NCBI GenBank assembly: GCA_015661185.1
Contig: JACVXU010000001.1
Location: forward strand, 1-47,448
Length of the DNA stretch: 47,448 nt
Direction of reading: 5' to 3'
Source of the DNA: Bacteroidota bacterium
GTDB lineage: Bacteria > Bacteroidota > Ignavibacteria > UBA10030
In this document: piece by piece, positions 22,537-27,392 of the stretch
Layout: each line of letters opens with the position of its first letter
Numbering within the stretch: the first letter of the stretch is position 1
The notes under the pieces: generated by a model
Told to the model about the DNA's origin: nothing
The model's input: the letters and a program-made list of their open reading frames with translations, nothing else
Database searches by the model: none
Translations under genes and position numbers: made by a program

Positions 22537-22619
22537 AACGCAGAGTCGCTGAGATCGCGGAGAATCGCAGAGACTTAAGCCCCCTCTGCGGTGCTCTGCG
22601 GACTCTGCGCCTCCGCGTT
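22537..22619. repeat. Inverted array of CGCAGAG/CTCTGCG cores with mirrored spacing
   Basis: Left cores start at 22539, 22547, 22556, 22566 (spacing 8, 9, 10). Right cores start at 22584, 22594, 22603, 22611 (spacing 10, 9, 8). Confidence 0.88.
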
Positions 22620-24419: not shown

Positions 24420-24628
24420 GTAGAGAGGTAAGACGGTAGACGGTAGACGTAAGAGGTAAGCAGCTACTAGCCAATAGCAGATAGGCAACAGCCGAAAGCT
24501 GACCGCTGATTGCTGGATGCATCGCGGGTTGGCTTTCTGCCTACTTCTTACTCCCTACTGCTTACTGCCTTCTGTCTTCCGAATTCTGTCTCCTGACTTC
24601 TGGATGCTGACTCCTGAATTCCTGACTT
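24420..24628. repeat. Mosaic of degenerate 7-nt tandem arrays, purine-rich on the left and pyrimidine-rich on the right
   Basis: About 14 in-phase heptamers at 24420-24520 (GGTAAGA/CGGTAGA..., then AGCnnAn). About 13 more at 24534-24625 (CTACTGC/TTACTGC..., then CTCCTGA). Confidence 0.88.
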
Positions 24629-26098
24629 ATGGCCTCCTGGGACCCTAAATACGAGCCGGTCATCGGCCTCGAAGTACACGCGCAGCTCCTGACCCGATCG
24701 AAGGCGTTCTGCGGCTGCTCGACGAGTTTCGGCGCCGAGCCGAATTCGAACGTCTGCCCGGTCTGTCTTGGATTGCCGGGCGTTCTCCCCGTCCTGAACC
24801 TGAGTCTGGTCGATTATGTCATACGGATGGGGCTTGCGACCCATTGCTCGATCGCCCCGCGTTCCATCTTCGCCCGCAAGAACTACTTCTATCCTGATCT
24901 CCCCAAAGGGTACCAAATCTCCCAATATGAAGAGCCGATCTGCTCGGGTGGATTTGTGGAGATCGAGCTTGAAGACGGATTGCGCAAGCGAATCGGATTG
25001 ACGCGCATCCATATGGAAGAAGACGCGGGAAAGTTGATTCACGATATCGATGTCGATACACTCGTCGATGTCAACCGGTGCGGGACTCCGCTGATCGAGA
25101 TAGTAAGCGAGCCGGAAATCCGCTCTCCACGCGAAGCATATCTCTATCTGGCGAAGATTCGCCAGATTGTAACGTACCTGGGCATCTGTGACGGGAACAT
25201 GGAGGAAGGGAGTCTTCGGTGCGACGCGAATGTCTCGGTGCGTTTGAACGGAGAGTCGGAACTCGGCACGAAGACGGAAGTCAAGAACATGAACTCCTTC
25301 CGCTTTGTCGAGAAGGCTCTGGAATTCGAAATTGGCAGGCAGATTGGATTGATCGAAAGCGGCGAAAAAGTTGTGCAGGAAACACTTCTCTGGGATTCGG
25401 GACAGGGGATTGCGGTCCCGATGCGCTCCAAAGAGGAGGCGCATGATTACCGGTATTTTCCCGATCCGGACCTTGTCCCTGTTCTTGTCACCGAAGAGTG
25501 GATCCAGAGGGTCGCGGAAACCCTTCCAGTGGATCCAACAGTCCGACGAGATCGGTTCGTTTCGGAATACAAGATCCCAATGTACGATGCAAACCTCCTG
25601 ACGGCCGAAAAGCCGCTTGCGGATTACTTTGAAGGAGTGGTCCGGAACCTGAAAACACCGACTGAAGAGAACTACAAACTCGCGAGCAACTGGACCATGG
25701 TTGATGTGCTGCGGGTCGTGAACACGGAGAACATTGCTCTCGCGGTTTTCCCTGTCACGCCGGCTCACCTTGCTGAGATGATCAACCTTATTGCTGACGG
25801 AACGATCAGCGGCAAGATGGCAAAAGATGTGTTCGAGGAAATGCGTACAACCAAGGAGTCGCCTCAGGATATTGTCGGGAGAAAAGGTCTGGTCCAACTG
25901 AGCGACACTGATACGCTCGAAAAGATTGTTGATCAGGTGCTCGAGAAGAATGCGGGGCAGGTTGCGGAGTTTCTCGGAGGGAAGTCGCAGGTCTTTGGTT
26001 TCCTGGTCGGTGAGTCTATGAAAGCGACCAAAGGAAGAGGGAATCCGAAGATTGTGAATGAGCTCTTGCGGAAAAAGTTGGAAACAATGAAGAAATGA
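24629..26098 (+). CDS. gatB: Asp-tRNA(Asn)/Glu-tRNA(Gln) amidotransferase subunit B
   Basis: '[10 protein letters not shown]', '[12 protein letters not shown]', '[17 protein letters not shown]', '[10 protein letters not shown]', '[10 protein letters not shown]', '[10 protein letters not shown]'. Confidence 0.97.
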
Positions 26099-26100
26099 TG

Positions 26101-26132
26101 GAGTATATGAGTATCGGAGTCTTGTAGCTCAG
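26101..26132 (+). repeat. 8-nt array, left flank of the four-helix-bundle gene
   Basis: GAGTATAT GAGTATCG GAGTCTTG TAGCTCAG, starting 2 nt after the gatB stop. Confidence 0.65.
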
Positions 26133-26162
26133 TTGGTTCGATATTCCCTGGAGGGAGATGCT

Positions 26163-26519
26163 ATGCACAAATTCAAAGAGCTGGATGTATACAAGAAGGC
26201 GCTCACTTTCACAAGGGTAGTGAGAGAAACAACGAAACGATTCCCGAAAGAAGAACTCTTTGTGTTGTCATCGCAATTTCGTCGTGCAGCTGATTCAATT
26301 GTTTTGAACATTGCGGAGGGGGCGGGGAACTCCAGCAAGAAGGAGTTTGCCCGATTCCTGGATTACTCAATACGATCAGGCTTTGAATGTCTGGGTTGCC
26401 TTGACATCTCTCTGCAAAACAAGTTCATCGAAGAATCTGCGCACTCGACACTCACTCACGATGTAAATGAGATTGTTGCAATGCTCTACGGTCTGAAGAA
26501 GTCTCTTTTTCGATCGTAG
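26163..26519 (+). CDS. Four helix bundle protein (TIGR02436 / 23S rRNA IVS-protein family, Avd-like fold)
   Basis: 'FKELDVYKKA', 'FPKEELFVLSSQFRRAADSIVLNIAEG', 'KEFARFLDYSIRSGFEC'. ATG 26163 follows SD GGAGGGAG. Confidence 0.92.
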   Translation: MHKFKELDVYKKALTFTRVVRETTKRFPKEELFVLSSQFRRAADSIVLNIAEGAGNSSKKEFARFLDYSIRSGFECLGCLDISLQNKFIEESAHSTLTHDVNEIVAMLYGLKKSLFRS

Positions 26520-26559
26520 ATTTGATGTCTTTGTCCGTTCATTGATCGCACCACTCAAC

Positions 26560-26630
26560 AAATCCCGTAATCCACAACTTGCTACTTAATTACTCCATTA
26601 CTTAACTACTTCACTACTCAACTACTTCAT
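26560..26630 (+). repeat. 8-nt array, right flank of the four-helix-bundle gene, inverted relative to the left flank
   Basis: TACTTAAT TACTCCAT TACTTAAC TACTTCAC TACTCAAC TACTTCAT at 26583-26630, abutting the tpiA ATG. Weaker units lie at 26560-26582. Confidence 0.85.
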
Positions 26631-27392
26631 ATGCGTACGAAGACTATCGCTGGCAACTGGAAAATGAACAAGGATTTCCTCCAGACTGAAGAACTCATCG
26701 ATGAACTCAAGAAGGCGTTGAGTTTCGATCTGAAAGGAGTGAAGGTGATCATCTGTCCCCCCTTCACATCTCTCGAGCTCGCACATCGTCTGATTCACGG
26801 ATCGGCGATCGAACTCGGCGCCCAGAACATGCATCACGAGGACGAAGGCGCGTTCACGGGTGAAGTGTCCCCCACGATGCTGAAAGCCGTTGGATGCAAG
26901 TACGTCATCCTCGGACACTCCGAGCGGAGACAGTACTTCCACGAGAGCGACGCATTCATTAACAAGAAAGTGAAAAAGGCGATCGCGGCGGGATTGACCT
27001 CGATAGTCTGCTTCGGAGAAACACTCGATCAGAGAGAGAAAAACATCACTGCTCAGGTCGTGACTGCGCAAGTTCGTGGAGTGTTAGAGGATATCGCTGC
27101 GGAAAACGTCGAGAGACTAATTCTCGCCTACGAGCCGGTGTGGGCAATCGGCACAGGAAGAAATGCGACACCCCAGCAGGCAGAAGAAGTTCACGTCCTG
27201 GTCCGAAAACTGCTGGGCGAGATGTACACTGCGTCAACTGCGGAAAGAGTCATCATACAGTACGGCGGGAGCGTCAAGCCGGAGAATGCTGCAGAACTGC
27301 TCTGGCAGCCAAACGTCGATGGGGCCCTTGTCGGAGGCGCCTGTTTGAAAGCCGATTCCTTTGCTGGCATTATCAAAGCCGCCGCCCGGTAG
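26631..27392 (+). CDS. tpiA: Triosephosphate isomerase
   Basis: 'IAGNWKMN', 'GAFTGEVS', 'ILGHSERR', 'AYEPVWAIGTG', 'YGGSVKP', 'DGALVGGA'. Confidence 0.97.
   Translation: MRTKTIAGNWKMNKDFLQTEELIDELKKALSFDLKGVKVIICPPFTSLELAHRLIHGSAIELGAQNMHHEDEGAFTGEVSPTMLKAVGCKYVILGHSERRQYFHESDAFINKKVKKAIAAGLTSIVCFGETLDQREKNITAQVVTAQVRGVLEDIAAENVERLILAYEPVWAIGTGRNATPQQAEEVHVLVRKLLGEMYTASTAERVIIQYGGSVKPENAAELLWQPNVDGALVGGACLKADSFAGIIKAAAR

Follow-up and report, generated by a model that had tools for sequence, protein, structure and literature searches.

The four-helix-bundle gene located between gatB and tpiA is enclosed by inverted arrays of 8-nt units, and this cassette represents one resident copy of a widespread module composed of an array, a leader with an SD, a four-helix-bundle gene and an inverse array. 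The module is established in its anatomy and its generality. That the arms would serve as recognition arrays for the ring-forming protein encoded by the module itself, and would in this way promote its copying or movement, is the reading that we prefer and to which we give about an even chance of being right.

The gatB-tpiA cassette

The window (i.e. the whole stretch of 47,448 nt that was analysed) contains the cassette, its host genes and a related spacer at the following positions:

24420..24628, + strand: gene-less compound spacer between sucC and gatB, with a 7-nt TAAGACG-type array after the stop and CTGCCTA-/CTGACTT-type 7-nt arrays up to the gatB ATG
24629..26098, + strand: gatB, the upstream host gene (NF004014 709 bits, TIGR00133 572 bits)
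26099..26135, + strand: 5′ arm, with GAGTA at 26101 and 26109, GAGTC at 26117, and an inner segment pairing with the beginning of the 3′ arm
26150..26157, + strand: SD-like GGAGGGAG, 5 nt 5′ of the ATG of the four-helix-bundle gene (read from the sequence)
26163..26519, + strand: 118-aa four-helix-bundle gene of the S23p family (TIGR02436 / PF05635, by profile scores)
26575..26630, + strand: 3′ arm, with an inner segment and six 8-nt TACTY units (26583-26630), ending at the tpiA ATG
26631..27392, + strand: tpiA, the downstream host gene (TIGR00419 217 bits)

The stop codon of gatB (TGA, 26096-26098) is followed 2 nt further on by the first 8-nt unit of the 5′ arm, whose three listed units are spaced by 8 nt. 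On the 3′ side, the TACTY units start at 26583, 26591, 26599, 26607, 26615 and 26623, again with 8-nt spacing, and the tpiA ATG at 26631 lies directly 3′ of the last of them. That is, the two arms are unequal in unit number, with 3 units in the 5′ arm and 6 in the 3′ arm. TRF reported the 3′ array with a period of 8 (5.8 copies, score 50) and also with a period of 16 (score 68). The pattern TACTY-N3-TACTY-N3-TACTY has 4 overlapping matches in the window against 0 in 100 shuffles, and GAGTA-N3-GAGTA has a single match in the whole 47 kb, at 26101, where 0.01 would be expected.

These positions confirm the layout given by an earlier, sequence-only reading of the window, in which GAGTA-type units begin 2 nt past the gatB stop, TACTY units run up to the tpiA ATG and a 118-aa gene with its own SD lies between the two arrays. 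The same reading had found no rRNA or reverse transcriptase in the window, and this stands, as no Rfam family reached the gathering score and RVT_1 had 0 matches in the entire genome (99.3% complete, 445 contigs). It had also singled out tpiA for its missing SD, which turned out to be nothing special: GGAG or GAGG occurs upstream of only 675 of the 2786 genes of this genome (24%), so that an SD-less tpiA is ordinary here. The cassette points the same way as its operon, and no tRNA, Rfam family, sigma-70-like promoter or terminator-like site was found within it. Rfam accounts for none of the spacers, its sole match being a 23-bit psaA match located elsewhere. A GTAGCTCAGTTGG-like stretch at 26124, considered as a possible tRNA, was rejected by the tRNA check; it is the inner part of the 5′ arm and pairs in the arm duplex.

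As had been proposed from the sequence, the arms are complementary arrays able to loop out the gene. The RNA duplex of the arms alone (26099-26135 with 26575-26630) has a computed free energy of −30.2 kcal/mol, compared with a mean of −13.8 kcal/mol (sd 3.1) for shuffled arms, and the observed value was reached by none of 300 shuffles. The duplex comprises 28 pairs in blocks of 7, 6, 5, 5 and 5, parted by internal loops of 2-3 nt, and the two 3′-arm units closest to the tpiA ATG stay unpaired. The arms also pair in both the MFE and the centroid folds of a 551-nt stretch, for which the z-score of the whole is only −1.78, and a cruder alignment test on 200-nt flanks was not significant (focal score 23 versus a shuffle maximum of 26). 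RNAduplex was noisy on flanks of 130-145 nt, any two of which gave about −50 kcal/mol, and arm-limited duplexes were used instead. At four of six loci of the focal protein's clade the sense duplex was stabler than the antisense one, and one locus (L122) strongly favoured the antisense duplex. Two metatranscriptome runs shared 6-9% of the window's words; contigs built from them were 90-95% alike, i.e. derived from relatives, and one 173-nt piece from such relatives spans 26586-26758. The runs gave no joints or ends at the arms, being uninformative in this respect.

The four-helix-bundle protein

The focal protein scores 100 bits against TIGR02436 (cut-off 24) and 106.6 bits against PF05635 (cut-off 33.8), and its family matches are to four-helix-bundle models only; no recognisable nuclease, recombinase or polymerase domain was found in it. 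The R-x3-S-x3-N-x2-E motif quoted for the family (PMC3936711) is present as a stripe in the focal family, in which R41, S45, N49 and E52 are invariant in an alignment of 6 sequences (A2), and in which, in an alignment of 28 sequences (A1), S45 does not vary and R41 and N49 show a conservation of at least 90%. The relatives of the focal protein in the PDB, 2gsc (E 3.1e-9) and 2rld (E 3.9e-5), contain five chains each, from which we infer that the family forms rings, i.e. pentamers of four-helix bundles. The protein also matches the Avd model NF033474 with 24.3 bits (E 2.9e-5), which is below the cut-off of 80. Between this genome (G000) and its nearest relative (G009), dN/dS is 0.145 for the four-helix-bundle gene, 0.105 for tpiA and 0.096 for gatB; by this measure the focal gene is under purifying selection. 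The genome also encodes an RNase III (228 bits).

Distribution and architecture of the module

The genome of the window (4.33 Mb, 445 contigs) contains 14 TIGR02436 matches, 13 of them above cut-off, and the flanks of most of these paralogues carry inverse arrays whose unit sequences differ. In a first shuffle test within this genome, 6 of the 12 loci with two flanks beat all 200 shuffles. A genus set of ten genomes gave 113 family matches, from which 90 ORFs were taken, 84 with two clean flanks; a wide set of species-representative genomes, queried with alignment A2 of the focal clade and biased towards relatives of the focal protein, takes in organisms from Bacteroidota (with strains of Pedobacter, Mucilaginibacter, Carboxylicivirga and Winogradskyella in the set), Ignavibacteria-type organisms, Chloroflexota, Nitrospirota and others. 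In the genus set, 51 of the 84 loci had inverted arms that outscored each of 100 shuffles, whereas the direct-orientation control did so at 12, and 59 of the 77 testable loci of the wide set passed the test compared with 6 in the control, all of these being counts inflated by kinship because both sets include orthologues and the loci are not independent events. Furthermore, the arms of a locus outscored those of 10 cross-locus partners at 44 of the 77 wide-set loci. The arm tests used mononucleotide shuffles and the gene calls were crude longest-ORF calls; the genomes are metagenome-assembled and fragmented, with arrays falling at contig ends. Several copies are in fact located at contig ends, the arrays breaking assemblies. 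Inverted arrays around paralogues, for which the sequence-only reading had proposed to test, are present. Some loci (L052 and L055) carry arrays in direct orientation on both sides. Most arms contain 4-5 units, a count that was seeded with a 4-unit window and is therefore silent on a match to the pentamer.

The position of the arms was measured on the 110 loci at which they were significant. The 5′ arm has its outer edge at a median of 2 nt past the upstream stop codon (quartiles −5 and 15; within 10 nt at 52 of 104 loci), and that of the 3′ arm at a median of 11 nt ahead of the next start codon (quartiles −2 and 48; within 25 nt at 69 of 101 loci). That is, the module spans stop-to-start spacers as a rule, and the placement at stop/start boundaries that had been suggested from the focal locus holds generally. 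The gene is co-oriented with both neighbours at 64 of the 68 complete loci of the wide set and at 43 of the 57 complete loci of the genus set, in which 7 cassettes are antisense to both neighbours.

Repeat period and motif in relation to the protein tree

Flanks of 121 full-length proteins were assigned to period 7 (83 proteins), period 8 (19), no clear period (17) or another period (2). On a FastTree protein tree the 7/8 label requires 5 changes, compared with a mean of 17.7 and a minimum of 14 in 300 label shuffles, a test that overstates the signal because many of the loci are orthologues. As far as the tree goes, it identifies the 8-nt period as a property of the focal protein's clade, the sister clades using 7 nt. 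Members of the focal clade (57-92% identical to the focal protein) have 8-nt units with a GAG[TC]AG-like core, and these units occur at three sites or more, namely ahead of tpiA, of murC (L136) and of a third gene (L130 and L135). In the clade resident at the ftsZ site, 8 loci were labelled period 7 and none period 8. Two other, distant protein groups also have 8-nt units, of the CATCGGNN type and of the TTAACCAR type.

The arm family does not strictly track the protein, since proteins that are 58% identical carry different arm families at the ftsA-ftsZ site, and since the focal arm type is common to proteins that are 57-58% identical whereas proteins that are 62-64% identical have other arms. 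Much of the period signal is shared descent, and period and motif could follow the tree by co-inheritance alone. The 8-nt-unit clade, standing beside sister clades with 7-nt units, offers a ready comparison of specificity.

Gene-less arrays

Arrays of this kind are far more numerous than the genes. Pairing of TRF consensus sequences yielded only 5 inverse pairs genome-wide, because the array units are degenerate, and the census was made by lag autocorrelation instead. This revealed 142 arrays of period 7 and 20 of period 8 in the genome, compared with 2 and 0, respectively, after a triplet shuffle; when the threshold was tightened, period 7 kept 34 arrays, and each other period from 5 to 13 had 0-4. 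The 162 arrays of period 7 or 8 comprise 108 intergenic arrays, 10 at gene edges and 44 in coding sequence. The 118 non-coding arrays form 39 unit clusters, and only 12 of them adjoin a four-helix-bundle gene, i.e. the 106 others make gene-less arrays more frequent by about 9 to 1. Unit clusters with a gene-linked member hold only 50 of the 118 arrays. In the window itself, the sucC-gatB spacer is occupied from stop codon to ATG by a gene-less array pair, and in two relatives the same spacer contains a four-helix-bundle gene. A search of 929 co-directional spacers gave 33 gene-less hairpins, a set that also takes in other hairpin families.

Age, decay and transfer

Of the relatives' loci examined, 24 of 29 have a gatB match upstream of tpiA; L040 has another gene in between. 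The nearest species (G009, tpiA 94% identical) has the cassette with a protein that is 92% identical and the same arm type, the unit numbers being 3 in this genome versus 4-5 in G009 for the 5′ arm, and 6 versus 8 for the 3′ arm. Other relatives have remnants at the same place: what is left in G001, of the same genus, is two 5′ units, about 33 codons from the beginning of the gene and 3′ units, and in G019, of another genus (tpiA 62% identical), about 22 codons from its end and 3′ units. In G002 and G005 the spacer contains a different insert of 266-270 nt, with TACTC-like units still ahead of the ATG, and three further members of the genus (G008, G004 and G006) have plain, array-free gatB-tpiA spacers of 45-51 nt. 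Empty sites, which the sequence-only reading had proposed to look for, are thus represented by both gene-less and plain spacers. At 11 of the 80 loci of the wide set, tpiA directly follows the gene, with gatB upstream at 8 of these, and the tpiA genes of the 11 loci are 55-94% identical to that of the window.

A recent insertion at gatB-tpiA does not agree with these data, as the gene precedes tpiA even where the identity of the relatives' tpiA to that of the window is down to 55-70%, and as remnants occur in G001 and G019. Since the gene precedes divergent tpiA genes, remnants persist and dN/dS is low, the comparison of relatives indicates that the cassette upstream of tpiA is an old, selected resident that has been repeatedly lost or eroded and no fresh insertion. 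The remnants in turn indicate that the focal cassette decays by internal deletion into gene-less arrays. A sister clade shows a similarly long residence upstream of ftsZ (17 of 80 wide-set loci), which makes the positions upstream of tpiA and of ftsZ two housekeeping junctions at which the cassette has persisted across deep divergences. Such long residence at a single site under purifying selection would fit a domesticated function in the operon as well as a selfish one.

Other sites are more dynamic. The sucC-gatB spacer exists in at least five states within one genus: it is plain (54 nt) in two genomes, and elsewhere contains a gene-less CAGAATG/ATTCTGA hairpin, the compound arrays seen both in the window and in the relative nearest to it, an antisense four-helix-bundle gene whose arms are of the CAATCG/CGATTG type, an antisense gene that is truncated, or an unrelated repeat with other arrays. 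Moreover, two loci in different genomes, L063 (G008) and L059 (G003), encode proteins that are 89% identical at unrelated sites, and their DNA homology extends from the outer edge of the 5′ array to the outer edge of the 3′ array, the flanks being unalignable. Because the homology stops at the outer edges of the arrays, arms and gene behave in this pair as one transferable unit.

Matching and polarity of the arms

At one locus with orthologues in several species, the units of this genome read xxTCAGC upstream and GCTGAxx downstream, and those of three other species xTTAGCx and xGCTAAx, respectively. Comparison of these orthologues shows both arms as having changed together, across all units. 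Transition mismatches between arms were counted as G:U or A:C, giving ratios of 115:106 for the genus loci and 92:100 for the wide-set loci (207:206 in total). By locus, G:U exceeded A:C at 20 genus and 19 wide loci, and was lower at 20 and 22, respectively. As a selected helix should tolerate G:U and purge A:C, no selection for a sense-strand RNA helix is seen, and the matching of the arms looks DNA-level or protein-directed rather than RNA-selected.

The 5′ arm is richer in G than in C at 49 wide-set loci and poorer at 6 (4 being equal), and richer at 42 genus-set loci and poorer at 7 (2 equal); that is, it is G-rich at 91 of the 104 loci with unequal G and C in both sets. To judge from this composition, the arms of the module have a fixed polarity. 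The G bias is absent in the 33 gene-less hairpins (18 versus 14), with the other hairpin families included in that set.

Proposed mechanism and alternative explanations

According to the preferred reading, the units of both arms would be recognised by the ring-forming protein that the cassette itself encodes, with one unit per subunit, and the arms would match each other through this recognition and not via selection on an RNA helix. The bound protein would bring the two arms together and, with host enzymes, would help the module and gene-less arrays to be copied, homogenised or moved, in a mode that can be likened to REPIN-RAYT systems or foldback elements. Any mobility would need host factors, given that the protein has no nuclease, recombinase or polymerase domain. 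Pairing of the arms within the operon mRNA may, in addition, extrude the insert as a loop, so that its presence between two cistrons would be tolerated. A mechanism of this type would account for arms that are matched without a wobble signature, for their concerted change, for the clade-wise period and motif, and for the lasting gene-less arrays.

The cassette could instead be a strict mRNA intervening sequence, as the sequence-only reading had it, in which case RNase III would cut the stem in the gatB-tpiA transcript, free the four-helix-bundle mRNA and part the flanking cistrons, and the RNA stem would be under selection. The arms do pair in the MFE and centroid folds (−30.2 versus −13.8 kcal/mol for shuffled arms), the genome has an RNase III (228 bits), the cassette lacks promoter-like and terminator-like sites of its own, and it is co-oriented with both neighbours at 64 of 68 and 43 of 57 complete loci; a precedent exists in the Coxiella IVS, with its GACAGAT heptamers and an RNase III cut at the first repeat (PMC4990558). 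We nevertheless consider this explanation rather unlikely, in view of the even ratio of G:U to A:C among arm mismatches (207:206 over two sets), of a sense duplex that is not consistently stabler (4 of 6 loci, with L122 strongly antisense), of a focal stem made only of 5-7-bp blocks interrupted by 2-3-nt loops, and of the seven genus cassettes that are antisense to both neighbours. Unit recognition by the protein and excision from the RNA might also both hold. A different role for the transcript would be that of a translational or attenuation device, in which the ring would hold the G-rich 5′-arm units of the mRNA, as TRAP does with spaced triplets, and would gate their pairing with the pyrimidine-rich 3′ arm, thereby tuning tpiA translation. 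Such a device would make sense of a 3′ arm that ends at the tpiA ATG (and, over 101 loci, at a median of 11 nt short of the next start), of the G-richness of the 5′ arm (91 of the 104 loci in which G and C differ), of the excess of 3′ units (6) over 5′ units (3), which allows alternative registers, and of the retention of the cassette at housekeeping junctions under purifying selection; the heptamers of Beggiatoaceae that end 1 nt before start codons have likewise been proposed to act post-transcriptionally (PMC4679880). The lack of a G:U excess counts here too, however, as do the missing G bias of the 5′ arm in gene-less hairpins (18 versus 14) and the three genus members with array-free gatB-tpiA spacers of 45-51 nt, and we hold this role to be improbable.

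Two further explanations are very improbable. Tandem repeats could arise alone by replication slippage, the four-helix-bundle gene being a mere neighbour: the unit number does vary between the close species G000 and G009 (3 versus 4-5 and 6 versus 8), and heptanucleotide repeats have been described as the most abundant class of long SSRs in many genomes (PMC4679880, citing earlier work). Slippage makes no inverse array across a gene, however, and inverted arms were found at 51 of 84 and 59 of 77 loci compared with 12 and 6 for direct ones; together with the homology of copies at unrelated sites, which stops at the outer edges of the arrays, and the concerted change of both arms, this makes slippage a highly improbable origin. 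Slightest of all is the prospect that the cassette is what remains of a diversity-generating retroelement, or a satellite of one, and that its gene is the Avd partner of a reverse transcriptase. The weak match to the Avd model (E 2.9e-5) would point that way, but it amounts to 24.3 bits against a cut-off of 80, there is no RVT_1 in the 99%-complete genome, and no template/variable repeat pair was seen in the region.

Relation to known systems

REPIN-RAYT systems consist of REP doublets and an associated transposase, the gene of which is flanked by inverted short repeats, and gene-less copies form intergenic hairpins. The gene is largely inherited vertically, and each gene family has its own repeat family. 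The module is similar in that a focal-type gene is found with inverted repeats that also exist as gene-less copies (106 of 118 arrays). It differs in that the protein is a four-helix bundle without an HUH/Y1 transposase domain, and in that the arms are tandem arrays of 7-8-nt units instead of a single palindrome of 20-40 nt. Drosophila foldback transposons have long inverted termini that consist of short subrepeats in tandem, and they occasionally contain genes, many copies having none; these are eukaryotic, far larger elements with unrelated proteins, and their likeness to the cassette is an analogy only. Avd is a pentameric four-helix bundle that binds nucleic acid. The focal protein resembles it by remote sequence similarity (E 2.9e-5) and by the five chains of its PDB relatives 2gsc and 2rld, but its match is below cut-off, and it is unlike Avd in that the genome has no reverse transcriptase and no template/variable repeats accompany it.

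STRRs are intergenic heptanucleotide repeats of cyanobacteria. Like these and the heptamers of Beggiatoaceae, tandem 7-nt units populate the spacers of the present genome (142 period-7 arrays versus 2 in shuffled sequence) and often end at a start codon, with a few unit families being reused across a genome. Unlike the exact 7-nt units of STRRs, the units of the focal arms have 8 nt. TAACTGA heptamers in Beggiatoaceae commonly stop 1 nt short of a start codon, and the part of the source that bears on them makes no mention of the S23p family (PMC4679880). There, the heptamers are described as direct repeats and are not linked to a gene (PMC4679880), whereas those described here form inverse pairs, some of which enclose a gene.

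In the helix-45 IVS of Coxiella burnetii, three tandem GACAGAT heptamers, variable in number, precede the S23p ORF, the IVS termini pair over 28 bp into a stem, and the RNase III cut falls where the first repeat begins (PMC4990558). The cassette is like 23S rRNA IVSs with an ORF in that the loop encodes a protein of the same family and the complementary termini pair into a stem, and like the Coxiella IVS in having short tandem repeats by an S23p ORF; both systems have been proposed to be selfish or mobile. It differs from 23S rRNA IVSs in its location between the protein genes gatB and tpiA and not in an rRNA helix (no Rfam family at gathering score), and from the Coxiella IVS in its 8-nt units and in the whole arrays on both sides. 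RNase III cleavage has been demonstrated for the Coxiella IVS, whereas in the focal cassette it would be putative. The Coxiella authors suggested that S23p is not made and is decaying (PMC4990558), unlike the focal gene with its dN/dS of 0.145.

Among openly searchable papers, nothing was found that links the TIGR02436/S23p family in general to heptamer or octamer arrays, the Coxiella IVS being one partial case. What is new here is the clade-bound 8-nt period, the age and decay of the cassette at tpiA, the unit-wise transfer, the absence of a wobble excess and the polarity of the arms. More broadly, the S23p-type ring may be a sequence-specific reader of 7-8-nt units that, together with inverted arrays, constitutes a transposase-less, foldback-like prokaryotic element, with STRR-like heptamers as its gene-less descendants and rRNA IVSs as copies that landed in rRNA. 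We advance this wider view tentatively, as a possibility with somewhat less than even prospects. One answer might then serve three puzzles, i.e. the function of the '23S rRNA intervening-sequence protein', the 7-nt spacer repeats and the nature of rRNA IVSs, and a package of gene plus repeats may account for many short repeats between bacterial genes. Finally, 18 genes of the S23p family have been described inside cas loci, e.g. between cmr3 and cmr2, in a passage that leaves arrays unmentioned (PMC3936711); the presence of arrays inside operons may explain the family's reported 'association' with cas operons.

Variable occupancy of operon junctions

Within a single genus, the spacer between sucC and gatB (window positions 24420-24628; loci L072-L079) is a hot spot. 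It consists either of a plain 54-nt sequence or of gene-less heptamer hairpins built from differing unit families, and in further cases it is occupied by an unrelated repeat, by a four-helix-bundle gene in antisense orientation or by a truncated copy of such a gene. In the window's own copy, CTGACTT/CTGAATT units make up a second 3′ array, similar to the 3′ arm of the hairpin in the same-genus genome G002, as if an older array pair had been overlaid by a newer one.

Two arm families, of the GCAGATT and AGTAnnn types, were found at one operon junction in the ftsA-ftsZ spacer (loci L005, L087, L068 and L088), where the proteins of cassettes with differing arm families are only 58% identical. This combination suggests that one cassette has replaced another at a single site. 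In the gatB-tpiA spacer of two same-genus relatives (L017 in G002 and L018 in G005), the four-helix-bundle gene is replaced by a different insert of 266-270 nt containing a GC-rich inverted repeat, and TACTC-like units still stand directly before the tpiA ATG.

Exceptions to the inverse arm layout were L052 (genome G009) and L055 (genome G008), in which the gene has the same CACTGTT-type array on either side, in direct orientation. At L055 the inverse array is located farther upstream, as if the gene lay within one arm.

A second tpiA-like sequence and SD usage

A partial second tpiA-like match, 53% identical, lies at the end of contig C227 of the own genome (positions 6-575). It could be a paralogue or belong to a contaminating contig; contamination is listed as 3.5%. 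Genome-wide, an SD-like motif precedes only 24-31% of the 2786 longer genes, a proportion in keeping with the nearest named relatives, whose labels are of the Bacteroidota/Ignavibacteria type.

Other dispersed repeats

Three further kinds of repeat were noted:

Window 22539-22609 and own contigs C83, C113, C163, C226, C297, C329, C347 and C405: hairpin family with 9-10-nt units
Own contigs C133, C148, C177 and C291: ~30-nt GC-rich motif containing two small hairpins
Own contig C67, 3097-3412, and L078 (sucC-gatB spacer of the sister species G004): structured repeat of ~200 nt

The hairpins form a separate dispersed family, with CGCAGAGnn units, CTCTGCGnn as the inverse and a common leader. They are present in at least nine co-directional spacers of the own genome, in none of which do they enclose a gene. 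The GC-rich motif recurs within or next to GAATATCG/CAATCG-type arrays, and brings to mind small dispersed repeats that have been described within the heptamer arrays of cyanobacteria. The structured repeat is common to two different settings, the C67 spacer being unrelated to the sucC-gatB spacer. Short arrays flank both copies, and the repeat is therefore MITE-like.
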